A DNA stretch of 64,000 nucleotides from the NCBI GenBank assembly GCA_963707915.1, contig OY970178.1, forward strand, positions 1,504,001 through 1,568,000, written 5' to 3'. Source of the DNA: Candidatus Eiseniibacteriota bacterium (GTDB lineage Bacteria; Eisenbacteria; RBG-16-71-46). Shown here one piece after another: positions 51,599 to 64,000 of this stretch. Below the pieces are notes generated by a model that was given only the letters and a program-made list of their open reading frames with translations, was not told the origin of the DNA and did not search any database. Position 1 is the first letter of the stretch; each line of letters begins with the position of its first letter. A program made the position numbers and the translations under genes.

Positions 51599-54178
51599 TC
51601 AACGCAAGACGACCAATTTCCTCACGCCCACGTCGCGCCCGGCGCGGACTTGCACGAGGTAGACGCCATCACGCACGGGGGCGCCTGAACCGTCCCGTCC
51701 ATCCCAGCGGATGTCGTGCTCGCCCGGGGTCGAGCGTTCGCCAGCCACCAACGATCGCACCTTGCGTCCGGCGAGGTCGAACAGGGCCACATCGACGGTG
51801 CAAGCCGAGGGCAGCAGGAAGCGGATCCCGCTCGTCCCACGCGAGGGATTCGGCCTCGGTGCTGCGAGCTGAAAGGTCCGCGGGAGGCCGGGCGCTGCCG
51901 TTCCGACACCGAGCAGGGTGCGCCCGCCCGTGTTCATCAGCACCGAGACCGAGGCGTAGTTCGCGGTCACGAGGTCGAGCTTGCCATCGCGATTGAGGTC
52001 CCCGACCGCGACGAAGTGGGGGCCAGGGCCGGTCGGGTACAGGCCCTGGGCGCTGAAGGTGCCGTCGCCCTCGCCGAGCAGCACGAAGACAAAGTCCCCC
52101 GCGCCGAAAGTCCATCTAGCGTTGGTCGCCACCAGGTCGGGTTTGCCATCGCCGTCCAGGTCGCCGATCGCCACGGAGCCCGGAATGATCATCCACGTGT
52201 CGTAGTCGGTCTTCATCCCGAAGGTTCCGTCGCCGTTGCCGAGCAGCACCGAGACCCTGGTGGAGCCGGAGTTCGCCGTAACCAGGTCGGGCTTGCCGTC
52301 ACCGTTCAGGTCCCCGATCGCCACCGAGCTGGGACCTGACCCGGTGGCGAAGTCGCTCTTCGGGCCGAAGTCGCCATCACCGCGGCCAAGCAGCACCGAG
52401 ACCGTGTTGGAGCCGAGATTCGCCGTCACCAGGTCAGGCATGCCGTCGCCGTTCAGGTCCCCGATTGCCGCGCAGTAGGGTTCGATCCCCGTGCCGAAGT
52501 CGCTCTTCATCCCGAAGGTTCCGTCGCCGTTGCCGGGCAGCACCGAGACCGTGTTGGAGCCGGAGTTCGCCGTCACCAGGTCGAGCTTGCTGTCGCCGTT
52601 CAGGTCCCCGGTCACCACGGAGTAGGGTTCGGTCCCCGTGCCGAAGTCGCTCTTCAGGCCGAAGTCGCCATCGCCGCGGCCGAGCAGCACCGAGACCGTG
52701 TTGGAGCCGACATTCGCCGTCACCAGGTCACGCTTGCCGTCGCCGTTCAGGTCCCCGGTCGCCACGGAGTAGGGTTCGGTCCCCGTGCCGAAGTCGCTCT
52801 TCATCCCGAAGGTTCCGTCGCCGCTGCCGAGCAGCACCGAGATCGTGTTGGAGCCGGAGTTCGCCGCCACCAAGTCGGGCTTGAGGTCACCGTTCAGGTC
52901 CGCGATCGCGACGGAGGCGGGGGAGCTCCCGATGCCGAGCGTCCTCGCGCCGAAGCTACCGTCGCCGTTGCCGAGCAGAACCGAGACCGTGCCCGGGTCG
53001 TCAGAGTAGCCTTCGTCCGCTGTTGCCAGGTCAAGCTTGCCGTCACCGTTCACGTCTCCGACCGCGAGGGACACAGGAACTCCCGCACCGCCGACGGCAG
53101 TGGGGAACGCAGTCACCACGCCGAAAGTGCCGTCGCCGTTGCCGAGCCAAACGTCGACCTCCGCGCGGTACCCCATCGGGATCACCATGTAGCGGGTGTT
53201 CGGCACCGCCAGATCGGGCTTCCCATCGCCGTTCAGGTCGCAGATCGCGACAGAGCCCGCACCCATCTGAGCCATCCCCCCGTCGAACGGGTAGCCGCTC
53301 GCTGCGTCGAAACTGCCATCGCCTTGGCCGAGGAGCACCGAGACGTTGCTGGAGATGCGGTTCCCCACCACCAGGTCGGGCGCTCCGTCGCCGTTCAGGT
53401 CTCCGATCGCCACCGAGAGGGGACCTGTCCCGGTCGCGAAGTCGGTCTTTGAGCCGAAGCCGCCATCGCCGCGGCCGAGCAGCACCGAGACCCCGTTGGA
53501 GCTCTGGTCCGTCACCGCCAGATCGGGCGCTCCGTCTCCGTTCAGGTCCCCGATCGCCACCGAACTGGGCCCTGATCCGGTGGCGAAGTCGGTCCTCGCT
53601 CCGAAGGCGCCCTCGCCGCTGCCGAGCAGCACCGAGACCGTATTGGAACCCTGGTTGGCCACCACCAGGTCGGGCATTCCGTCATCGTTCAGGTCCCCGA
53701 TCGCCACCGAGCGGGGATTCCCCCCGACGTCGGAGATCCAGCCTTCCCAATACGTCCCATCGCCGTTGCCGTCCAGCACCGAGACCGTGTTGGAGCCCTG
53801 GTTCGCCACCGCCAGTTCGGGAGTTCCGTCACCGTCCAGGTCCCCGATCGCCACCGACGATGGCGCAGTCTCGGTGTCAGAGTCCTGCTTCGTCCCGAAG
53901 CCACCATCGCCGTCACCAAGCAGCACCGAGACCGTGTTGGAGCCCCGGTTCGCCGCCACCAGATCGGCAATTCCGTCATGGTTCAGGTCGCCGATCGCCA
54001 CGGACGAGGGCCAGATCCCGACGCCGAAACCTCGAGGTGCGGAAAAGAGCGGATCGGCGGTGGTTCTGCGCGGAACCGCAGTGGAGGCAGCGAGCAGGAC
54101 GAACACGAGCCAGCCGTTGATCAGGGCGCGGCGTGGAAGCACTCCGCGCACCCGCTCTGGAACATCCTGATGGAACAT
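51599..54178 (-). CDS. FG-GAP/VCBS repeat beta-propeller protein with C-terminal FlgD-Ig domain
   Basis: About 14 repeats of SVAIGDLNGDGKPDLVTAN.GSNTVSVLLG.GDG.FG; C-terminal PRPNP..FDLAGRKVR..WDGRDGSGAPVRDGVY. Confidence 0.9.
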   Translation of the reverse strand: MFHQDVPERVRGVLPRRALINGWLVFVLLAASTAVPRRTTADPLFSAPRGFGVGIWPSSVAIGDLNHDGIADLVAANRGSNTVSVLLGDGDGGFGTKQDSDTETAPSSVAIGDLDGDGTPELAVANQGSNTVSVLDGNGDGTYWEGWISDVGGNPRSVAIGDLNDDGMPDLVVANQGSNTVSVLLGSGEGAFGARTDFATGSGPSSVAIGDLNGDGAPDLAVTDQSSNGVSVLLGRGDGGFGSKTDFATGTGPLSVAIGDLNGDGAPDLVVGNRISSNVSVLLGQGDGSFDAASGYPFDGGMAQMGAGSVAICDLNGDGKPDLAVPNTRYMVIPMGYRAEVDVWLGNGDGTFGVVTAFPTAVGGAGVPVSLAVGDVNGDGKLDLATADEGYSDDPGTVSVLLGNGDGSFGARTLGIGSSPASVAIADLNGDLKPDLVAANSGSNTISVLLGSGDGTFGMKSDFGTGTEPYSVATGDLNGDGKRDLVTANVGSNTVSVLLGRGDGDFGLKSDFGTGTEPYSVVTGDLNGDSKLDLVTANSGSNTVSVLPGNGDGTFGMKSDFGTGIEPYCAAIGDLNGDGMPDLVTANLGSNTVSVLLGRGDGDFGPKSDFATGSGPSSVAIGDLNGDGKPDLVTANSGSTRVSVLLGNGDGTFGMKTDYDTWMIIPGSVAIGDLDGDGKPDLVATNARWTFGAGDFVFVLLGEGDGTFSAQGLYPTGPGPHFVAVGDLNRDGKLDLVTANYASVSVLMNTGGRTLLGVGTAAPGLPRTFQLAAPRPNPSRGTSGIRFLLPSACTVDVALFDLAGRKVRSLVAGERSTPGEHDIRWDGRDGSGAPVRDGVYLVQVRAGRDVGVRKLVVLR

Positions 54179-54389
54179 GAGCGGCCTGCTCCTGCCGCAG
54201 GATGGGCAAGTCCCCCGGCGGGAGCGGCTGCCCCGAAGCGGGCGACTGCGACGACACCGATAACATGTAGAGGTGAGCGCCGGCCGACTCGGCCGAGCCC
54301 GTTCCTAGAGCGTAGCCCCGGACCGCCCGCCCACCTAGCAAAATGCCCATGGATGGCAAGCCCGGCGTCGGCTGGTGGACGCTCAGCGC

Positions 54390-54539
54390 CCCGCCCTCGA
54401 CGAGCTTCAAGGCCTGGGCGAGCTGCTCGACCGTGAACTTGCTCGTCTTCATCCTGGGTCCTCCTCCTTCCGGTTCAGGAGGCCCCGAGGTTAGCGCACG
54501 ATGAGAGTCCGGCTGCTCCAGGAAACCGGGTTCGGATCA
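54390..54539 (-). mobile_element. IS3-family remnant (left end plus first ~21 codons of orfA)
   Basis: TGATCCGAACCCGGTTTCCTGGA IR-like end at 54539; AGGAGGAGG RBS; MKTSKFTVEQLAQALKLVEGG, after which similarity ends. Confidence 0.7.
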
Positions 54540-54540
54540 G

Positions 54541-54732
54541 CCCCACCGTGGACAACGCGGAGAAGTCCTCGTGATTCAACGTCCTGCTGCGCTTCCCGCC
54601 ACCGTCCCGCTCGACCACGCCCACTGGAAGTTGAATGCTAGCCCCGGGGTGGACACAGAGGTCGAAAGCGGCGAGAAGCCCGCTGAATGTGTGCAAAGCG
54701 ACGAGGTCGAAGAGACCCGTTCGGACCCATAG
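54541..54732 (+). pseudogene. Possible NUDIX hydrolase fragment
   Basis: GQRGEVLVIQR..HWKL..VESGEKPAECVQSDEVEET resembles a degenerate Nudix box; no start codon; abuts the IS3 end. Confidence 0.3.
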
Positions 54733-55010
54733 AACCGGGGTCAAACTAGCAGTTCGAGCACAGAACCAGCACAACCAGGGTCGCCGCTACGCACGCAGGA
54801 GAGCCACTTGAAGGTGACCTCTGGCGCCGGGCTCTAGAGGATCCGGCCAGCCCGAGGACTCCCCCCGAGAGTGCGGTGAAGGCCTCGGTTGGACGTGCTG
54901 GAAAGCTCCACTTGGCCAGCCTGCCATCTTCAGGGATTCCGGTTGTTTGCTGCCGCGCTCTGCGATCGAAGCGCTAGACAACCAGTAACCCGCGTGTTCT
55001 TCTGACCGCC

Positions 55011-58000
55011 ATGAGTGAACTCCATGGACCCCGGCAGTTCAGATTCTCTGATCCGCGGCACGAGCGCATCCACCGCCGACTTGCACGGTTGATCGGACCG
55101 GGCGCCGCTGCGTTCTTCCGTGACGCCTGCAAGGTCGTGGAGGAGGCCCCGGCATTTCAGACCACGAGCCACATAGTTGGGCACCTGCTCCGGGAGACTG
55201 AGAGCTCCATCCGCTACGCCTTTCAGCCATTGATCAAGTCTGCGGGGCCGAGACCGAAGGATGCCGGCCATCGCTTTCAAATCGAGCAGACGCTCAGTGC
55301 ACTGAACATCCCGCTTACTGACCCGGTGGCCAAGGCGTGGTTGGCGATCGCCGGCAAGGAGAACGACAAGGGGCTTGCCGGGTTGGCGCATCGCAGAGAC
55401 CTCGGGCCGCCGCGTCCGTTCGATGGTGGCGCTCGGCAGGCGGTTGAGCAGATTGTGACGGTGCTCGATGCCGTCCTCGAGAAAGTCGAGGCGAGGTGGG
55501 AGGTGTTCCTTGCCACCTTTGACGCTCTTGCGAAGACAGAGCACCCGAACGCTAAGCACGCCGAAGAGCTGCGCCTTCGTCTGCCCAATAGCCTTCAAGC
55601 CAGGAGTCACTTCTTCGGACAGCTCGGGAACCCTGAGTGGCTGGACCCGCTCGGGCGAGAGGGCTTCTTCAAACAACCGCCGGAACCGGTCGTCGACGAT
55701 GAGGCGGATACGATCCTCTTTCCCCCCTGGCCCGAGTCACAGTTCTTGCTCAGGATGGCTCAGGCCGGTGTTCGTGCGGTACAGGAACAGGTCGTCGCGA
55801 TAGCTGGCGGTATCCCCGATGCAGATAATGTCCGCGTCTACGACGACTTGGCCTCGATCGCTCTCGCGGTTCCACCTGACCTCGCGAATCGCCTTGTGCC
55901 GCGCATTCAAGCGAAGCTACCGCTCCCGTATTCGTCGCAGTTTCCGCTGCACGTTGCTGACCTCGTTGTTCACTTGACGACAGCGGGGCTGGTCACCGAA
56001 GCCCTTGGCCTAGCGCGCACTCTCCTTGCGCTAGACTCCGATCCGCGGGCCGAGCGCTACGAAACGCCACCGGAGCACCAGATCGCTCCATTGCCCGGTC
56101 CCCAGCCCCGAATGCACCCGGCGTTCTATGACGATGTCTTGGAGAAGATGGTCCCGGCCCTCTTCAAGGCGAGCCCACACCAGACGACAGAGCTGCTGGC
56201 GGACCTTCTCGAGCAAGGGCTCCGTCTGGCGCAGCGGACGGCATCCCAGGCCGGCCCCGAGGCACAGTCGCAGGTATGGTGGCCGGACTTGACGCTCGCG
56301 CGCCCGAGTGTGGCCGACGACCCGCCGGCCATGCTGCTCGATGCTCTGCGCGGGTGCGTCATGGAGCTCGTGGCGAAGGATGCGGGGGCTGCTCTCGGAC
56401 TTGTCGCTGCCTTCGAGGCCAAGCCGTGGCATGTCTTCCGGCGTCTCTCTCTTCTGCTCCTTCGGCTCACTCCTGACCTTCCGGTCGGGGAGATTGAACG
56501 CCGCCTCCTGAGACTCGAGGACCACGAGATTCGAGAGTTCCACCGCGAGTACGTGGACCTGCTTCGCGAGTCGTACCCGAATCTCGGCGCCCCGGCCCAG
56601 CACACCATTCGCGAGTACCTGGCTCGGGAAAGGGACCAGGAGTCGTTGGTCGAGAACTTCCGATTCTGGTCTGGTCGTGACCCCTCTCCCCAGGACATCG
56701 CACAGCGCCAAGATGAATGGCGAGCAGCGCGTCTGGAACCCGTTGCGGAGTACCTGCCGGCCGAGATCAGGGACCAGTACGACGTGTGGGCGAGAACCCT
56801 TGAACCTCGGAGCGAGCCCACCCCTCCCGCCGCCGGCTGGGGATCACCGCGTTCGCCAAGGAAGTCGGAGGACCTTGCCGGCATGGAAGACGACGCGCTT
56901 GTGAACTACCTGGCGAACGTCGACTTGGGCGACGAACGCTTCGGACTCTCCCGGGAAGGGCTGGGCGAGTCCCTGACGCAGGCCGTCACGAGCGATCCGG
57001 ACCGATTTGTTCGCCTTGCCCCCCGGTTTCGCGACTTGGACCCAGCCTATCAACACGCACTATTCGCGGGACTCCACGACGTCTTGGCCAGGCAATCTGT
57101 CTTCAGCTGGCCTCCGATCCTAGACTTGGCAGTCGTAGTCACGTCCTCCACACCCGACCCAGCGAGTAGGCGAGGGGGCGGTCACTCCCCCGATGACCTG
57201 TGGGTCCGGCGAGCGATTCTGGATCTCGTCGCCCGAGGGTTGGAACCCGGACCTGGGGAGCTGCCTTTCGAACTCCGTCCGCGCATCTGGTCGGTCCTTG
57301 AGCCGCTCACGGCTGACCCCGATCCGACGCCGGACGAAGATGCCAAGCACACGAGCGCGGAAGAACGCGAGACGTTGTACCTGAACAGTCTCCGCGGCCG
57401 CGCGCTGGACGCTGTCTGGGGATACTCGGTCTGGATCTACAGGCATGATCACAAGGATGGCAGCAGGCCCATGACCTTCGGGCCCATCCCGGAGGTCCGC
57501 AGCATCCTCGGACGGCACCTCGACCCCGAGCACGAGCCGTCGCCGGCGATTCGTGTCTTCTATGGGCAGCACCTGCAGCAACTCCGCCGCCTCGACCCCG
57601 AGTGGCTGCACAACCAGGTGAAGCGGATCCTCCCTCGGGACCTCGAGTTGCTCTCCCAGAGCGCCTGGCAAGCGTACCTCTCCAGTGCCCAGGTTCAGCC
57701 ACCCGACTTCGAGATTCTCCGGCCCTGGTACGAGCAGGCCGTGGCGGAGGTCGGCTCCGACCTCTCAGGGGACACCCAGCGCTCCGCCGAACACCTGGGG
57801 CGCCACCTCGCAAGACTCCAGTGGCTGGGAGTGATCTCGCCGCGTGAGCCCGGCGGCTTGCTGGAGCGCTACTTCGCTCAGGCATCTCCAGCACTGCGCG
57901 GGGAGACGCTTGAGTTTGTCGCGCTCACGCTCAACAACACTAGCGACGCGCCTGCGCCCGTGCTCGAGCGCATGAGAATGCTCTGGGAGTGGCGGAGAGA

Positions 58001-58391
58001 AACCGCGGAAGGCACTGTTGAGCGGGAACAAGTCGCCGAGGAGATGGCTGCCTTTGGCCGGTGGTTTGCCTGCCCGCAGTTGGACCCCGAGTGGACACTT
58101 CGGGAGCTGAACGCGGCATTGCGGCTGAGTGGGCGCGTGGAACTCGCACCGACTGTCGTCAGCCGGCTGGCAATCCTCTCCGAGCGGTTCCCGAAAGCTG
58201 CCATCGAATGCTTGGATCTGATGGTGGGGGGCCGTGACCGCGACTTTGGCCCCGACTTCTGGCTACACGATGCCAGGCCAGTTCTTGAGAACGCTCGCCG
58301 CAGTCCCGACCCCGCGACTCAACAGGCGGCGATTGTGGTCATTAACCGCCTCTCCGCGCTCGGCTTCACGCAGTTTCGGGATCTCCTCTAG
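55011..58391 (+). CDS. 1126-aa hypothetical protein, putative defence protein (N-terminal HEPN-like effector plus long helical region)
   Basis: Long ORF with island-type codon usage; SHIVGHLLRETESSIR..LAGLAH N-terminal domain; W/L-rich helical repeats; no Walker A seen. Confidence 0.7.
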   Translation: MSELHGPRQFRFSDPRHERIHRRLARLIGPGAAAFFRDACKVVEEAPAFQTTSHIVGHLLRETESSIRYAFQPLIKSAGPRPKDAGHRFQIEQTLSALNIPLTDPVAKAWLAIAGKENDKGLAGLAHRRDLGPPRPFDGGARQAVEQIVTVLDAVLEKVEARWEVFLATFDALAKTEHPNAKHAEELRLRLPNSLQARSHFFGQLGNPEWLDPLGREGFFKQPPEPVVDDEADTILFPPWPESQFLLRMAQAGVRAVQEQVVAIAGGIPDADNVRVYDDLASIALAVPPDLANRLVPRIQAKLPLPYSSQFPLHVADLVVHLTTAGLVTEALGLARTLLALDSDPRAERYETPPEHQIAPLPGPQPRMHPAFYDDVLEKMVPALFKASPHQTTELLADLLEQGLRLAQRTASQAGPEAQSQVWWPDLTLARPSVADDPPAMLLDALRGCVMELVAKDAGAALGLVAAFEAKPWHVFRRLSLLLLRLTPDLPVGEIERRLLRLEDHEIREFHREYVDLLRESYPNLGAPAQHTIREYLARERDQESLVENFRFWSGRDPSPQDIAQRQDEWRAARLEPVAEYLPAEIRDQYDVWARTLEPRSEPTPPAAGWGSPRSPRKSEDLAGMEDDALVNYLANVDLGDERFGLSREGLGESLTQAVTSDPDRFVRLAPRFRDLDPAYQHALFAGLHDVLARQSVFSWPPILDLAVVVTSSTPDPASRRGGGHSPDDLWVRRAILDLVARGLEPGPGELPFELRPRIWSVLEPLTADPDPTPDEDAKHTSAEERETLYLNSLRGRALDAVWGYSVWIYRHDHKDGSRPMTFGPIPEVRSILGRHLDPEHEPSPAIRVFYGQHLQQLRRLDPEWLHNQVKRILPRDLELLSQSAWQAYLSSAQVQPPDFEILRPWYEQAVAEVGSDLSGDTQRSAEHLGRHLARLQWLGVISPREPGGLLERYFAQASPALRGETLEFVALTLNNTSDAPAPVLERMRMLWEWRRETAEGTVEREQVAEEMAAFGRWFACPQLDPEWTLRELNAALRLSGRVELAPTVVSRLAILSERFPKAAIECLDLMVGGRDRDFGPDFWLHDARPVLENARRSPDPATQQAAIVVINRLSALGFTQFRDLL

Positions 58392-58812: not shown

Positions 58813-59946
58813 CTAACGGGTAGCAAGCGCGGCATGCGCCTCCGCAACGCATTGCCGGAGACGGCAGAACGCCAGCAGGAAGTGCCTCCTGGGTTCGACG
58901 ACCGCCATGAGCCCTGCATGTGCGGAAGCAATCGCGAGGGGCAGTCGCCAACTCATGGTCGCATCATCCAGATTGTGTCCGAGACGTTGGATCTCTCTAT
59001 CGAGCGCGTCGGCGCACATCTGCCTACGGCGTTCAATGATACCTGAGCGCCTGCCAGTCCCCGTGCGGATCGCCCACGTCATCCGCCCGTCTGCCACCGT
59101 GACATCGAATGCCCTGCGCCCACGGCGCCCACCCTTGCTTCGCCGCGCCTCGTGGTTGATATAACCCAACACATCCAGCCAGTGGTACAACTTGCCCACG
59201 TCAAACAGATAGTCCGTTTCACCGGCCGCCGGGTTCGGGTCGATCAGCCGCAGTCGATGTCGTCGCACCTGTTCGCGAACGAGGATGTTGCCAAGGTGCA
59301 GGTCGCCATGCGCCCGTCGTACCGGCACGCACACGCGCCGCGAAGCGGCCGCCAGCACCCGCAGCGACGTCTGAAGCGGAGGTACGCCCCCCCCGCCGAT
59401 GGTCACAGGTCCCATGACCACCGCTGCACCATGTCTCTTGCGTGCGGCTGCCAGGCGCGTCCGAATCCGATGCACGTATGGAAGCTCGATAGTGCGCCTT
59501 CGGAGTCCCACACTGAGATGCTGAGTAATCTGCTGCATGGCGCTCGTGACGATGGGAGCGACGGCGGACGTCGGGCGCGGGTCCTCATAGACCAGGGTGT
59601 AGAGGGAGCGATAGCCCTCAAGACGCTCGATCAGCATCCCATGCCGGCCGTCACCCAAGGGGAACGTCCCGAGCACGGCTGGCGTCAGTCGCGGCTGCGT
59701 CGTACGAAACAGCTCCTCCATGAGCGCAGCCTGTTCCACGATTTCCTCGCCGCCGAGCTTCAGGACGACATGCAGTTCGATTCCAAGGTCAGCAACCAGC
59801 GGACTCATGAATCCATCCGAGTATGGGATCCCATCCCCGAGGCGTACGTTAGGCCCAAGGTCTGTGCGCTTCACTCCGTTGGCGACAAGCGCGATCAACT
59901 CCCGACGGACCTTCCCGAAGTCGTCCTTGCTCAGGAGCTTGCTCAT
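58813..59946 (-). CDS. APH/choline-kinase-like phosphotransferase
   Basis: VVLK, MLIERLEGY, AHGDLHLGNIL catalytic loop, LIDP, DYLFDVGKL; ATG 59946 after GAGG. Confidence 0.82.
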   Translation of the reverse strand: MSKLLSKDDFGKVRRELIALVANGVKRTDLGPNVRLGDGIPYSDGFMSPLVADLGIELHVVLKLGGEEIVEQAALMEELFRTTQPRLTPAVLGTFPLGDGRHGMLIERLEGYRSLYTLVYEDPRPTSAVAPIVTSAMQQITQHLSVGLRRRTIELPYVHRIRTRLAAARKRHGAAVVMGPVTIGGGGVPPLQTSLRVLAAASRRVCVPVRRAHGDLHLGNILVREQVRRHRLRLIDPNPAAGETDYLFDVGKLYHWLDVLGYINHEARRSKGGRRGRRAFDVTVADGRMTWAIRTGTGRRSGIIERRRQMCADALDREIQRLGHNLDDATMSWRLPLAIASAHAGLMAVVEPRRHFLLAFCRLRQCVAEAHAALATR

Positions 59947-60207
59947 GACACCCTCACAGGGTCTGCGCGACGACGAGTGATTCGCGACACTCTCTCGTGT
60001 CCCTGCCAGCCCCGCCCGTTCATGGCTCGGGCCAGCATGCAGACACGAGCAGCTCCCGTCCCGGAGCATGCGGCTGATGCAACCCGGCTCGCGTGTTTGC
60101 CACGATCCCGCCCGTCCCCGCGAGTAGGCCACGGTACTCCTGGCAGAGTGACATCACGTTGCTGCGCCCCCCACACGCGCCGCACGGAGACAGCGGCATC
60201 GGGTCCC

Positions 60208-61392
60208 TCAGGACCCGCCACGATCGGGGCCACTTTCCAGCGGGTGCACCGCACCGCCGGGCGGTCGCCCGAGCAGTTCATCGAGACGGTCGAGATCAGC
60301 ACTTGAGCAGATCCGCACGAGATCCTGCAGCTCGTTCGCGGTTTGCCAGATATCGCGAAGCCGGCGCATCTCGGAGCGCGACCGGCTTGCAGAGGTCCCA
60401 AGCCACCGAGGCATCTGATAGGCAATGCTCCCGTAGCCCCCCATCACCGACAGATCCTGATAGAGCCCTCTCTTCTGGAGGACGTTCCCCTCCACGAAGC
60501 TGATCGGGGCCCCGACGCGGCCGAACATCGTGGCCAGCCTTCGAAGGGACGCGGCCTGTGGCGTCCCTCGAAGTGCGTCAAACGACGACACCGTCACGAT
60601 CGTCTTGTATGAGCCAGGAGCTCTCTGCGCAGCCTCCATCGCGGTGTTGAGTAGGTGCGAGAATGGGCCAAAGGACTCCCAATAGTCGTAGCCCACTTGT
60701 TCGAGACTGGTGTCGAGGCAAAGGACCTCCCCACCGGATGGCAGTGTACACAGGTAGCCATGCTCCTCGAATGTCAGCAGTTCCGATTTGAGTAGCGCTA
60801 GCACTTCGGCGCGCTGTGACTTGAACCGTGGGAGGAGTGCGGGATCATCGTTCGCCGCTATGAGCTCGTCCATCTGACTGACCATTTCCTGGAGTCGCGA
60901 TCCCTCACCCACGCCGGGCAGAACCGTATATCCCGAGTCACCGAGAAGGAAGCAATAGAGTGGATGACTGTTGAGAAACGTGACGAGCTCCTGAACGTCC
61001 CAGATCAGAACGGTCGGACGTCCAGTGAACTGTTCGCCAAGGACGGCCGCTTCGTCATGGCATTGGGCCGAGCATCGGAAGTTGACGATCATGATGTAGT
61101 ACGCAGGAAGATGCAGGCGCCGCTCAAGCTCCGCCAGAGCTCGCGTCAGCAGTTGCAGGACACCACGCCGCGCAAGACTCTTCGTCCTGAACTTGAGCTG
61201 GAACACCCACTCGCCGCTCATGCCGGCGAAGTCTCCCCGACCAGGACCTGAGTAGGTTGCATCGCGTCCCCGGTCCTTCCCACTCACAGGATGAAGCCGC
61301 ACGCGCTCCGAGATGCGTCGCTTCAGCATCACAAGTGCGAGTTGATTGAAGGCGTCTTCCGTCAGGGTGGCGAGGCGCGCTTCGTCGATCAT
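60208..61392 (-). CDS. PD-(D/E)xK restriction-endonuclease-like N-terminal domain fused to an uncharacterised C-terminal domain
   Basis: LTEDAFNQLA..GKDRGRDA..WVFQLKF..YYIMIVN..IWDVQEL; ATGA overlap with the aminotransferase stop. Confidence 0.72.
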   Translation of the reverse strand: MIDEARLATLTEDAFNQLALVMLKRRISERVRLHPVSGKDRGRDATYSGPGRGDFAGMSGEWVFQLKFRTKSLARRGVLQLLTRALAELERRLHLPAYYIMIVNFRCSAQCHDEAAVLGEQFTGRPTVLIWDVQELVTFLNSHPLYCFLLGDSGYTVLPGVGEGSRLQEMVSQMDELIAANDDPALLPRFKSQRAEVLALLKSELLTFEEHGYLCTLPSGGEVLCLDTSLEQVGYDYWESFGPFSHLLNTAMEAAQRAPGSYKTIVTVSSFDALRGTPQAASLRRLATMFGRVGAPISFVEGNVLQKRGLYQDLSVMGGYGSIAYQMPRWLGTSASRSRSEMRRLRDIWQTANELQDLVRICSSADLDRLDELLGRPPGGAVHPLESGPDRGGS

Positions 61393-62510
61393 GGGTCTCG
61401 CTCGAAGGAGCCTCGGAGACGCGCGACTGCTTTGTGGAGATAGGGCACCGGTCGCGCGAAGACGATGCGCACGTGACGCGGGCATGGAGGCCAGAACGCC
61501 GTGCCCGGCAAGAGCACCACTTCTGCCCTCCGAATGGCGTGGCGGCATAGACGGCGGGCGTCCCATCCGGGCTTCACGACACGCGCCCAACAGAAGAGTC
61601 CGCCGTCCGGGGACCTCGGGAGGATGAGTCGCAAGAGACCTGAGCGCAGTGCGTCCACAAGAGCAGCGCGCGAACGGGCGAAACGGCCGGAGAGCAGGTC
61701 GAGCGGCGACCGCAGAAGATGCAGCGCAGCCTCCTGGCTGAGACCGGAAACACCGATACGCAGCGTTTCCGCTGTCGCCGCAAAGGCCCGTGAGAGCGCA
61801 CCCGACGCTGTGATCCACCCGATGCGGAGTCCGGGCGCACCGAATGTCTTCGACACGGAGTTCACCTTCACCAGCCACCCGTGCGCGAGGACCGCCCGCG
61901 GCTCGTGGCTTCGCGCACTCTCGTACAGGAACTCATCATAGACCTGATCGAGGATGAGAAACGTCCGGGCCCGCTCGCATTCTCGTGCCAGCCGAGTCAG
62001 AGTCGACTGCGCGTAGACGACGCCGGTCGGGTTGGATGGACAGTGGAGAAGCAGAGCTCTCGCCTGCCGCAATTGAGCGGCGGTCAAACGCTCGGGATGA
62101 CGAACCGGGACGGCATCCGCACCCAGCCGGTGGACGACTTGAGCGTAGAAGGCGAGCGCCGGAGCTTGGATCAGGACACGACAGCCACGTGACAGCACGC
62201 AGAGGAGGATGATGGACAATGCCTCGGACGCACCATTGGTGACGGTTATGTGCTCCGCGGACACATTAAGTGCGTACTTGCTGTTCTCCCGCGCGGCGAT
62301 GGAATCACGCAGCCGCGCGTCACCGCGGGTGTCCGGGTAGCTCCACGCACGGGACGCCGGAAGCCGCGGAAGCCCAATGCGCACCGACGGCACGGGCTCC
62401 GCCAGATCCAGAAGGGGGCGTCCGGTCGCCCGCGCCAGTCGGGCCAGGCCCTCCATGGGTGACGGGGAGCCACCCGACATCCACACCAAGCCGCGATGCG
62501 GTCGCATCAT
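61389..62510 (-). CDS. PLP-dependent class I/II aminotransferase, MrsB-like (beta-methylarginine biosynthesis)
   Basis: YPDTRG..LR, ITVTNGASEAL, PSNPTG, ILDQVY, NSVSKTFGAPGLRIGW (PLP Lys); ATGA-coupled to the MrsA-like gene. Confidence 0.85.
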   Translation of the reverse strand: MMRPHRGLVWMSGGSPSPMEGLARLARATGRPLLDLAEPVPSVRIGLPRLPASRAWSYPDTRGDARLRDSIAARENSKYALNVSAEHITVTNGASEALSIILLCVLSRGCRVLIQAPALAFYAQVVHRLGADAVPVRHPERLTAAQLRQARALLLHCPSNPTGVVYAQSTLTRLARECERARTFLILDQVYDEFLYESARSHEPRAVLAHGWLVKVNSVSKTFGAPGLRIGWITASGALSRAFAATAETLRIGVSGLSQEAALHLLRSPLDLLSGRFARSRAALVDALRSGLLRLILPRSPDGGLFCWARVVKPGWDARRLCRHAIRRAEVVLLPGTAFWPPCPRHVRIVFARPVPYLHKAVARLRGSFERDP

Positions 62511-63526
62511 CGACCCTGTAGCGCAAGGGCGTGCTCCAACTCTGTTGGGTCGAGCCGATGATCGACGATTGTCTCGGCCAAGAGGTTGAAGCCACATTCT
62601 GAGAACAGCGTGCGCCAGAACGTGAGAGGGCGCAGCGCCTGTCGAGTCAGCTCGTGGAGCAGGAAGTATCCGTTGTAGTACCCAAGTCCTGAGGGGGTGG
62701 CCATCGCGGCCGGCGCGGCGGCGCGGTCCACTTCGACCACGATGACGAGTGCTCGCGGATGCTCCTTCGCTAGCGTCGTCAGCAGGAGCCGCACGGCCTC
62801 TTCCCCGTAGGTCCCGAGCAGCTCGTGCAACAGGAAGGCAAAGACGAAGACGTCCGCCCCCTTGGATGACGCGCTGCTCAAGAAGTGGACCGCATCTTCG
62901 CAGACAACGCTGACGCGGTCCGTCAGCCCCATGCGTGCCACCAATGCCTCAGCGCCGGCCGTGCTCACCGTGTTCCCCTCGACACCGATCGCTCGGATAC
63001 TCGGTAGCGCGGTGCACAGATCCACCAGGTACTGCGCATTGCCACAGCCGACATCAACGACCAGCTTCGCGTGAGGGCGGAAGCGATTGACATGACCAAG
63101 CACAAGCGGAATGGAATCGTGCGCGCTGATGGCGCAGCTGGCTCGACTGACCTCCCCGATGTTGCGACGTTGCGGAATCGGCCCCGTGCGAAGCGCGTCA
63201 GGAATGTGCGCAAAGACATCGCCATACCCACCGCAGAAGAGCGTGAGCCACCCCTCATGGCTTCGGATGTCGGCAAGCAACTCCGTGGTCCAGTAGTGTC
63301 CGGACTCCTGCACGGCGAGCCCCTCGGTTACAAGGAACTCCAACACCGCCCGAGTGATCGAGGGATCGAACCCAAGCCGCTCAGCCACGGACTCAGACGT
63401 GGCGCCCTCGTGGGTGAGCGCTCCTGCAAGACCAGATGTCACGACCGCATTCAAGACGTGGGTAACAACATAACCCCTGGACTGTGCGAGCAAGTACGCG
63501 AGGCCGTTGCTTGGCGCGAGTGGCAT
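62507..63526 (-). CDS. mrsA: 2-ketoarginine methyltransferase (MrsA-like)
   Basis: Motifs shared with MrsA as recalled: EGW..L..GGY..F, SC.IS..D.IPL, DVGCGN..YL..C.ALP.I, F.LHE.LG..G..AV, EVD, YYN.Y.LLH..T.Q.L, D.T.LE. Confidence 0.82.
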   Translation of the reverse strand: MPLAPSNGLAYLLAQSRGYVVTHVLNAVVTSGLAGALTHEGATSESVAERLGFDPSITRAVLEFLVTEGLAVQESGHYWTTELLADIRSHEGWLTLFCGGYGDVFAHIPDALRTGPIPQRRNIGEVSRASCAISAHDSIPLVLGHVNRFRPHAKLVVDVGCGNAQYLVDLCTALPSIRAIGVEGNTVSTAGAEALVARMGLTDRVSVVCEDAVHFLSSASSKGADVFVFAFLLHELLGTYGEEAVRLLLTTLAKEHPRALVIVVEVDRAAAPAAMATPSGLGYYNGYFLLHELTRQALRPLTFWRTLFSECGFNLLAETIVDHRLDPTELEHALALQGR

Positions 63527-63696
63527 TGCGGCTCTTGTGCTCCTTCTCCGAGTAGGTTGGCTTGTCAATGGTCGTCGGCATCGAACCACATCTCAGAATG
63601 GTAGCCATCCCGGTGCGGGTATGCAGAACAGGCGTGCGCCGGCGCCGGCGCCACCAGCATAGGCATCCAGCGACTGCTCACTCGCTTTGTACTACT

Positions 63697-63999
63697 TCAT
63701 GTTTCGGTGGTGTCGCTCTCGCTCCTGTAGTAGGGGTCACCGGATCGCGACCACTCGACGACCTTGCGGTCGAGAAGCGTCTCGAATCGGAGCTTGCCAT
63801 CCATGATCGCGTCCCACTCTTCCCCGTCCATCAAGATGACTGCATGGTGCTCGCCCATTCGGCGCGCAGACTCCACAGCCGTGGACCTATAGCCTGACAT
63901 CGAGATGACGATGCCACGCACCTCAGCTTGCTTGAGCCTTGCCTCCAACCCGTCAAGATCGCTCTGATCCAGCGGCTCCTTCTGCCACTTGACCTCGAC
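63697..63999 (-). CDS. Mrr-like restriction endonuclease, C-terminal part (runs off the window)
   Basis: VEVKWQKEPL (ExK), RGIVISMSGY, VILMDGEE, LLDRK..SGDPY. Confidence 0.78.
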   Translation of the reverse strand, partial: VEVKWQKEPLDQSDLDGLEARLKQAEVRGIVISMSGYRSTAVESARRMGEHHAVILMDGEEWDAIMDGKLRFETLLDRKVVEWSRSGDPYYRSESDTTET

Positions 64000-64000
64000 G

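Follow-up and report, generated by a model that had tools for sequence, protein, structure and literature searches.

In Pseudomonas syringae, 3-methylarginine is made by the 2-ketoarginine methyltransferase MrsA together with the aminotransferase MrsB and is exported by the LysE-type protein MrsC; a homologous enzyme pair takes part in the biosynthesis of arginomycin. Known bacterial signalling immune systems use nucleotide-derived messengers, and purely metabolic defence is only now being validated. The available part of the preprint on Ukko describes a validated four-enzyme metabolic anti-phage system of Streptomyces that includes an aminotransferase (bioRxiv 10.1101/2025.01.08.631966), which shows that amino-acid chemistry can be defensive. 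Here, a window of 64,000 bp from the genome of a Candidatus Eiseniibacteriota bacterium (GenBank contig OY970178.1) was analyzed. The genome, G000, is a single contig of 3.62 Mb with a GC content of 72.2%, and the window corresponds to G000:C1:1,504,001-1,568,000. Near the end of the window, the minus-strand genes for a methyltransferase (MT), an aminotransferase (AT) and an orphan nuclease protein of 394 amino acids (P3) were found to form one translationally coupled unit, followed by a kinase-like gene without translational coupling. The MT-AT-P3 unit, carried as cargo of a genomic island, is tentatively proposed to be a defence operon that would link a nuclease to a beta-methyl amino acid derived from arginine.

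The locus combines a nuclease effector with a presumed regulatory domain beside small-molecule enzymes on a defence island. P3 resembles Cap4 of CBASS and Card1 and Can2 of type III CRISPR systems in having a PD-(D/E)xK nuclease and a putative regulatory domain in one polypeptide and in being encoded next to small-molecule-making enzymes, and Card1 and Can2 were among the structural matches of its nuclease domain. It differs from them in that no SAVED or CARF domain was detected in P3 with Pfam, in that the neighboring enzymes are amino-acid-modifying and not nucleotide cyclases, and in that binding of a ligand is presumed. Ukko shares with the locus the use of amino-acid-modifying enzymes, including an aminotransferase, for defence, with a small-molecule product proposed by its authors. 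As far as the available part of the preprint goes, Ukko differs in having a tryptophan dioxygenase, an N-oxygenase and a reductase and in having neither a nuclease nor a methyltransferase, and its enzymes have no sequence relationship to the locus.

The gene for MT (339 amino acids) is located at 62507-63526, the gene for AT (373 amino acids) at 61389-62510 and the gene for P3 at 60208-61392. The kinase gene (377 amino acids) follows at 58813-59946. An earlier note on this DNA, made from the sequence, had described these four co-oriented minus-strand genes, and they are seen in the sequence at these positions. Direct reading of the sequence showed ATGA at 62507-62510, where the MT stop overlaps the AT start, and at 61389-61392, where the AT stop overlaps the P3 start, so that both of the joins claimed in the note are present. 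The note had further described a run of five genes including a nuclease gene upstream of MT. Of this run, the middle three genes are indeed translationally coupled, but the outer two are set off by gaps of 170 bp (between MT and the upstream gene) and 261 bp (between P3 and the kinase gene). The start of P3 at 61392 is supported, because the first residues of its homologues align to P3 residue 1. The 261-bp spacer (59947-60207), also read directly, contained no consensus promoter or terminator, a consensus that may not apply to this phylum, and no Rfam family was found in the region 54-64 kb of the window, spacer included. All four frames are open, and the catalytic motifs are retained in each of them: the S-adenosylmethionine (SAM) motif, the pyridoxal phosphate (PLP) lysine, D-D-QxK, and HGDxxxxN with a downstream D. 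The GC content at third codon positions of the four genes (0.70-0.74) is similar to the values elsewhere in the island and favors none of the models considered below.

MT was identified as a SAM-dependent alpha-keto-acid C-methyltransferase of the MrsA type. The highest NCBIfam score was obtained with TIGR04543, the model for 2-ketoarginine methyltransferase (256.4 bits, E 3.6e-76), with an alignment covering model positions 13-331 of 336, and the next-best model reached 57.7 bits. MT scored 255.9 bits in a scan of the whole genome with TIGR04543. At E <= 1e-30, the model had no match in 14 control genomes and none in 205 other genomes of the phylum. The closest solved structure was that of a 2-ketoarginine methyltransferase (PDB 8r4z, E 5e-41), followed at a distance by the keto-acid C-methyltransferases SgvM (8ftr, E 1.7e-9) and MppJ. 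The earlier claim that MT matches MrsA along its whole length was borne out by the end-to-end alignment to TIGR04543, by 8r4z as best PDB relative and by the lack of matches in all 14 control genomes. By these sequence comparisons, MT is specifically MrsA-like and not a generic methyltransferase.

The motifs of MT were consistent with this assignment. The SAM motif DVGCGN begins at residue 158, FLLHELLG at residue 231 and YYNGYFLLHE at residue 283. According to the available part of the paper on SgvM, this enzyme binds zinc via H244 and H296, S141 lines its substrate pocket, and M144 is one of the three positions altered in an engineered mutant with a widened pocket (PMC10502145). In HMMER alignments, the first zinc histidine of SgvM is retained in MT, within FLLHELLG. 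At the position of H296, both MT and MrsA have an asparagine, with a common histidine six residues later (YYNGYFLLH in MT, YYNPYYLLH in MrsA). Furthermore, MT and MrsA are identical at nine of twelve positions over SgvM 140-151 (SC(A/G)IS..D(S/A)IPL), a stretch that covers the pocket residues S141 and M144. MT is like MrsA where MrsA departs from SgvM, which is a hint, not proof, that the substrate may be a guanidino-keto acid.

AT was found to be a class I/II PLP-dependent enzyme of the aminotransferase fold. It matched Pfam Aminotran_1_2 with an E-value of 2.4e-39, and its PLP lysine is K221, located within SVSKTFG. Its two top NCBIfam models were GntC (181.4 bits, cut-off 415) and TIGR04544, the MrsB model (156.7 bits, cut-off 350), both of them for enzymes that act on arginine derivatives. 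Generic aminotransferase models scored AT at about 138-143 bits. AT was the top TIGR04544 match in the genome, followed by housekeeping paralogues at 113, 104 and 81 bits. The earlier assignment to an MrsB-type PLP aminotransferase holds for the fold and the PLP lysine; the MrsB type itself is less certain, with a score of 156.7 bits against a cut-off of 350 and a better score for GntC.

Relatives of MT with 31-34% identity were found by tblastn on eight plasmids, and three of these loci were inspected. On a Streptomyces plasmid, a class I aminotransferase named MrsB by PGAP overlaps the MrsA stop by 4 bp, and AT is 30% identical to it (E 1e-27). On a plasmid of Alisedimentitalea, the two genes overlap by 7 bp, and AT is 23% identical to the aminotransferase (E 3e-21). 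In the third locus, an unrelated protein follows MT. A 4-7-bp overlap in two of the three inspected loci suggests that P3 was appended to a conserved two-gene cassette. On this comparison, MT-then-AT appears as a recurring cassette, and what is unusual here is the attached nuclease gene.

The Alisedimentitalea locus gave the best tblastn match of MT (E 8e-39; A. scapharcae plasmid NZ_CP123587.1, 6523-15481). Its MT-AT cassette is flanked by genes for a 2OG-Fe(II) oxygenase, an FAD oxidoreductase, RidA and a 952-amino-acid protein of the SUMF1/EgtB family, and it is directly adjoined by a cytosine-methyltransferase/MvaI-BcnI restriction pair and a large DEAD-box helicase. It is a second MrsA-like cassette beside defence genes, on a mobilizable plasmid. 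No similarity was found to the unnamed proteins of this plasmid locus, nor among the island proteins.

The MT-AT cassette resembles the MrsA/MrsB pathway in its gene arrangement, adjacent and overlapping with MT first, in the full-length alignment of MT to the MrsA model with 8r4z as best structure, and in AT, which is 30% identical to a PGAP-named MrsB and has the PLP lysine. It differs in that both proteins are below the equivalog cut-offs, with AT slightly closer to GntC, and in that no MrsC/LysE exporter accompanies them; a coupled nuclease gene and a defence-island setting are found instead. No LysE match (PF01810) was found in the island, and the only one in the genome is located at 2,294,126, about 730 kb away, in agreement with the earlier remark that there is no LysE-type exporter nearby. 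By score, MT and AT fall outside the MrsA and MrsB equivalog families, yet judging from their sequences they very probably work like them.

P3 matched no model of Pfam, NCBIfam, PADLOC or PHROG. An exhaustive phmmer search among 1.84 billion representatives yielded 19 proteins with E <= 0.001, P3 included. Fifteen of the 19 match P3 up to about residue 170 only, and the C-terminal part was common to only two other proteins in this search. The first, P0004 (281 amino acids, E 2e-42), aligns with P3 residues 98-368 and belongs to a four-member cluster (JGI/IMG, Logan) with a longest contig of 22,244 bp. The second, P0005 (336 amino acids, E 2.7e-30; NCBI, 19,930-bp contig), carries a Cro/C1 helix-turn-helix (HTH) domain joined to the P3 C-terminal domain and aligns with P3 residues 157-370. 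A cadherin-repeat protein of 3959 amino acids (P0006) was set aside as, in our judgement, a likely spurious repeat match. When 17 of the proteins were scanned with Pfam, six had NACHT, nSTAND or AAA_16 behind the N-terminal domain, P0008 had a weak Mrr_cat match (E 0.003), P0005 had the Cro/C1 HTH, and nine had no family.

The N-terminal domain of P3 (residues 1 to about 150, 60943-61392) contains the motif GxDxGxD...FQxK, conserved in all four aligned N-terminal homologues, with D40, D44, Q65 and K67 as candidate catalytic residues. The spacing D44-X20-Q65-x-K67 equals what we take to be the motif of MspJI, D-X20-QxK. With an alignment of seven sequences, the AlphaFold2 model reached a predicted local distance difference test (pLDDT) score of about 70-86 in two parts, residues 1-147 and a helical hairpin at about 163-211, but stayed below 50 in the C-terminal domain; the single-sequence model of P3 scored 38.8. 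Foldseek with the P3 model returned nothing at E <= 0.001, and its top rows were EcoT38I (E 0.011, probability 0.97), AspBHI and MspJI. P3 residues 1 to about 157 were also compared with 48,161 chains using VIA-align. The highest matches were AspBHI (Z 9.3, root-mean-square deviation (rmsd) 3.8, 140 residues aligned) and the N-terminus of Avs4 (PDB 8dgf; Z 8.9, rmsd 3.6, 130 aligned), followed by LlaBIII (Z 8.5), MspJI (8.3), EcoT38I (7.9), Card1 (7.6), FokI (7.4) and Can2 (7.3), where Z-values of 7-8 are common for unmatched models. The call of a nuclease fold was made because this list coheres with the sequence evidence, and not from the scores alone. The earlier claim of a PD-(D/E)xK domain in the third protein is upheld by the four motif residues, the homologues, the model of the N-terminal domain and VIA-align Z-values of 8.3-9.3, and the predicted fold is that of a PD-(D/E)xK nuclease of the MspJI/Mrr type.

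The remainder of P3 (60208-60942) comprises a helical hairpin (about residues 160-211), an unclassified, presumably alpha/beta C-terminal domain (about residues 212-370) and a tail. The motifs VLCLDTSLE, YDYWES, YKTIVTV and FVEG, together with many charged and aromatic residues, are invariant in the C-terminal domain of the three members. No Pfam match was obtained for this domain even at E 10, a profile search gave no PDB sequence match, and the language-model atlas gave no usable match for P3. In P3 the domain follows a nuclease, whereas in P0005 it follows an HTH; such an arrangement would be expected for a regulatory or sensor module, and the domain may have this role. The HTH fusion of P0005 suggests a transcription-factor version of the module.

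The nuclease domain of P3 is homologous to the N-termini of NACHT/nSTAND proteins and superposes on the nuclease of Avs4 (8dgf). On STAND/Avs-like proteins this kind of domain serves as the effector, which was counted in favor of the proposed operon. P3 differs from the Avs/STAND ATPases in that it has no NTPase module, and in place of the STAND/repeat sensor it has the helical hairpin followed by about 160 residues of an unclassified domain. AspBHI and MspJI are the best structural neighbors of the nuclease domain, but P3 has no SRA-like DNA-recognition domain, and its nuclease is N-terminal, so that the domain order is reversed.

The kinase gene encodes a divergent phosphotransferase, probably of the APH (protein-kinase-like) family. 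Pfam matches were below cut-off for APH_6_hur (23.9 bits, cut-off 27, E 3e-5) and APH (17.1 bits, cut-off 23.2, E 0.005), as were TCAD9 (E 0.002) and NCBIfam APH(6) (19.9 bits, cut-off 325, E 3.5e-4). The catalytic-loop motif HGDLHLGN was found at residues 213-220 and a downstream aspartate, D236, in LIDPN. HxDxxxxN with a downstream metal-binding D is presumably the catalytic signature of APH and protein-kinase-like enzymes. The nearest clusters of the protein in the language-model atlas were APH-bearing (0.98), and no PDB sequence match was obtained. The APH-like kinase of the earlier note is therefore retained on the motif, D236 and the atlas, although all family scores remain below cut-off. 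It is possible that the kinase is a fourth member of the unit.

The GC content falls to 61-67% from about window position 54,000 on, for about 40 kb, compared to 72.2% for the genome, which agrees with the lower-GC island described earlier. An att-like direct repeat of about 48 bp (54590-54636 of the window, imperfect, with a 22-bp identical core) has its counterpart at G000 1,598,924-1,598,971, where the right repeat falls within the 3' end of the gene for a tyrosine integrase (L015:7553-9016, plus strand). The repeats enclose about 40.4 kb. The flanks of the island are about 1.2 kb apart in the congener G004, where the island is absent, compared to about 43.6 kb in G000, and the congener G005 has one copy of the repeat at the same flank. 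Among the matches listed for seven congeners, nothing past window position 54,774 was matched. The repeats, the integrase and the empty site in G004 identify the block as cargo of an integrative element of about 40.4 kb that is rich in anti-phage-like genes. Insertion sequence remnants had been proposed earlier; this idea was rejected, as no transposase family was matched and a tyrosine integrase, a Prim-Pol protein and att-like direct repeats were found instead. The sole hint of a transposase was a sub-threshold HTH_32 in a Dsr1-like protein of 1126 amino acids. The defence-island setting was confirmed by SIR2-HerA, DruE-like, Type IIG and Dsr1-like genes on the same element.

Upstream of MT lies the gene for a protein of 669 amino acids on the minus strand, with its 3' end at 63697-64000 and its start at the window-equivalent position 65706, so that only the last 100 codons are inside the window. 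Its Mrr_cat match at residues 552-633 is borderline (21.2 bits, cut-off 21), and to this extent the Mrr-like nuclease of the earlier note was recovered. A tetratricopeptide repeat (TPR) match at residues 385-465 was sub-threshold, and the first approximately 380 residues are unclassified. An open reading frame of 492 amino acids with no family match and an unusual GC content at first codon positions of 0.84 adjoins this gene, and both are located between SIR2-HerA and MT (L002:13697-17451, minus strand).

Upstream of the block and beyond the window, the genes encode, in this order, the TPR-Mrr protein, the 492-amino-acid protein, HerA (PADLOC, 833 bits), SIR2 (497 bits), an LRAT-like protein (161 amino acids), a DruE-like helicase with an MZB domain (1829 amino acids), a DUF6998 protein (315 amino acids), a Type IIG restriction-modification enzyme (1729 amino acids, 1500 bits), RmuC (485 amino acids, PADLOC RTasRmuC E 1e-57), an SNF2 helicase, a sigma-70 region-4 regulator, a Prim-Pol/AAA_25 protein and the tyrosine integrase. 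The genes from LRAT-like to RmuC (L003:1358-14954, minus strand) are tightly packed, with DUF6998 overlapping both neighbors, and the LRAT-DruE-DUF6998-Type IIG-RmuC run could be a Druantia- or DISARM-like composite. Downstream of the block, the 1126-amino-acid protein is encoded at 55011-58391 of the window on the plus strand. Its residues 611-904 match PADLOC Dsr1 (E 1e-22), no SIR2 domain was detected in it, and residues 364-410 carry the sub-threshold HTH_32 match. The protein is perhaps a sensor body like that of Dsr1, joined to another type of N-terminal effector.

Two further features were observed outside the left repeat. An FG-GAP-repeat protein of 859 amino acids with a C-terminal FlgD Ig-like domain is encoded at 51599-54178 (minus strand), in the stretch that separates the conserved flank from the left repeat. 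G004 and G005 lack it at that position, and paralogues with 66-71% identity are found elsewhere in the genus. An element of 155 bp at 54389-54543 recurs with about 89% identity at G000 451222, 3450792 and 3451859 and with 89-92% identity in the congeners G004 and G007. It had no Rfam match and could be a repeat resembling a miniature inverted-repeat transposable element or a small RNA.

The proposed operon starts from what was observed, namely the gene order, the overlaps, the family identities of MT, AT, the nuclease domain and the kinase, the intact motifs and the mobile defence island. AT and MT would convert arginine or a close analogue, via its 2-keto acid and with SAM as methyl donor, into a beta-methylated amino acid. 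The product would be retained inside the cell, as there is no exporter nearby. This product, or a derivative phosphorylated by the APH-like kinase, would be read by the C-terminal domain of P3, which would control the MspJI/Mrr-type nuclease domain. The product may be made constitutively and keep the nuclease off, and the nuclease would be set free once an infection depleted SAM or arginine or stopped host expression. A constitutive inhibitory ligand was considered more economical than an infection-induced activator, because neither enzyme carries a sensor domain. The Panoptes system reportedly follows such a logic, with a constitutively made inhibitory ligand. A Panoptes-like system is the subject of a separate report (10.64898/2026.08.10.743927). 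Substrate and product, binding of the ligand, direction of control, membership of the kinase and a role against phages are all suppositions of the model, and gating of the nuclease by methyl-arginine or its phospho-derivative is proposed from the gene order. Amino-acid-signalled immunity in this complete form, with beta-methylarginine or its phospho-form silencing P3 and loss of SAM, arginine or host expression unleashing it, is considered rather unlikely.

Several points weigh against the proposed operon. The score of MT with TIGR04543, 256.4 bits, is below the equivalog cut-off of 425 bits, an outcome that the earlier note had named as counting against its reading. The likeness of AT to MrsB is only about 15-40 bits over generic aminotransferase models, and TIGR04544 matches all 14 control genomes at E 1e-20. 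With both enzymes below their equivalog cut-offs and AT only modestly over the generic models, the product is uncertain. On plasmids, other MrsA-like cassettes belong to what look like biosynthetic clusters, together with genes for oxygenases, ATP-grasp enzymes and MFS transporters. Some clearly different genes of the island are only 43-57 bp apart, and close packing is common here. None of the families of PADLOC-DB v2 matched AT, P3 or the kinase, and MT had only generic matches (mad2, E 5e-7, and MTase_II). The C-terminal domain of P3 has no assigned fold, and its sensor role is an assumption. The kinase gene stands behind a gap of 261 bp. Finally, the linkage of MT, AT, nuclease and kinase was found in no second genome, and no relative with retrievable gene context was met. 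A single occurrence with no close relatives offers no evidence from co-occurrence or co-evolution, and the linkage may be accidental.

The recurrence of the gene combination was searched for in several collections. No usable relative with gene context was obtained from word-index searches with P3, MT and an alignment designated A1, from genome contigs searched with MT and A1, or from metagenome contigs searched with A1 and the kinase. Likewise, no usable relative was found in viral contigs searched with A1, in plasmids searched by tblastn with P3 and the kinase, or in phages searched by tblastn with P3 and MT. P3 had no usable match in the genomes of 60 relatives, and the kinase had only weak N-lobe matches, in nine of 205 other genomes of the phylum. 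The linkage was missed elsewhere because no relative with retrievable context was met, not because relatives were located in other surroundings. One literature search, directed at defence systems with aminotransferases, brought up no account of this gene combination, which is no proof that none exists. The combination is a singleton so far, neither confirmed nor contradicted elsewhere.

The strongest alternative to the proposed operon is that the genes are independent neighbors. MT-AT would be a self-contained metabolic module, either an Ukko-like chemical defence acting through an arginine antimetabolite or a metabolic passenger. P3 would act separately, as an effector-sensor encoded by a single gene, the kinase would be a third unit, and the ATGA overlaps would result from tight packing. 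The known pathway needs nothing beyond MT-AT, and plasmids carry this cassette repeatedly without a nuclease. Single proteins combining a nuclease with a sensor are common among the relatives of the N-terminal domain of P3, the island genes are densely packed, recurrence of the linkage was not found, and Ukko, going by the available part of its description, is a precedent for metabolic defence. However, genes whose start and stop overlap by 4 bp are normally co-translated from one operon, and the coupled trio is bounded by gaps of 170 bp and 261 bp. Furthermore, an antimetabolite would call for an exporter or an obvious self-protection gene, and neither was found, unless the kinase is the latter. 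Mere adjacency of independent units, although itself doubtful, is nearly as likely as the operon.

A less probable alternative is an antimetabolite cluster for bacterial competition, from which 3-methylarginine or an analogue would be released, with the kinase serving in self-resistance or modification and the nuclease being unrelated. APH-family enzymes commonly inactivate guanidino- or amino-bearing antibiotics, and the kinase has a weak match to APH(6). The nearest characterized relative of MT is the 3-methylarginine enzyme, and plasmid relatives are in biosynthetic contexts. In the island, however, there is neither an exporter, the sole LysE-family gene being about 730 kb away, nor any other biosynthetic gene nearby. 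Much of the remaining identifiable cargo matches anti-phage models, and the nuclease gene is translationally coupled to AT. Taken together, this makes a released antimetabolite improbable.

It is very unlikely that the block is decaying or inert cargo, with genes intact by chance and no working system in this host. The singleton without relatives would fit such cargo, but four open frames, catalytic motifs that are kept and overlaps that are preserved argue against it. Modification-dependent restriction, in which MT, AT and the kinase would build an amino-acid-derived mark on DNA or nucleotides and the nuclease would tell marked from unmarked DNA, finds some encouragement in AspBHI and MspJI as best structural neighbors of the nuclease domain and in phage thymidine hypermodification pathways, which use kinases (of the P-loop type) and PLP enzymes, but it is highly improbable given that MT is related over its full length to 2-keto-acid C-methyltransferases acting on small molecules and not to DNA methyltransferases, that glycosylases, transferases and DNA-binding modification enzymes are absent, and that the kinase is APH-like and not of the P-loop type.

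If the proposed operon is real, immune signalling or chemical defence would be extended to modified amino acids. Chemistry of the 3-methylarginine type would gain an intracellular role, and in the rather unlikely amino-acid-signalled form its product would serve as a metabolite 'antitoxin' that watches over methylation and translation in the cell. The C-terminal domain of P3 would represent a novel type of regulatory module, which so far recurs in one HTH protein, in an operon of less than 5 kb from an uncultured, non-pathogenic soil lineage.

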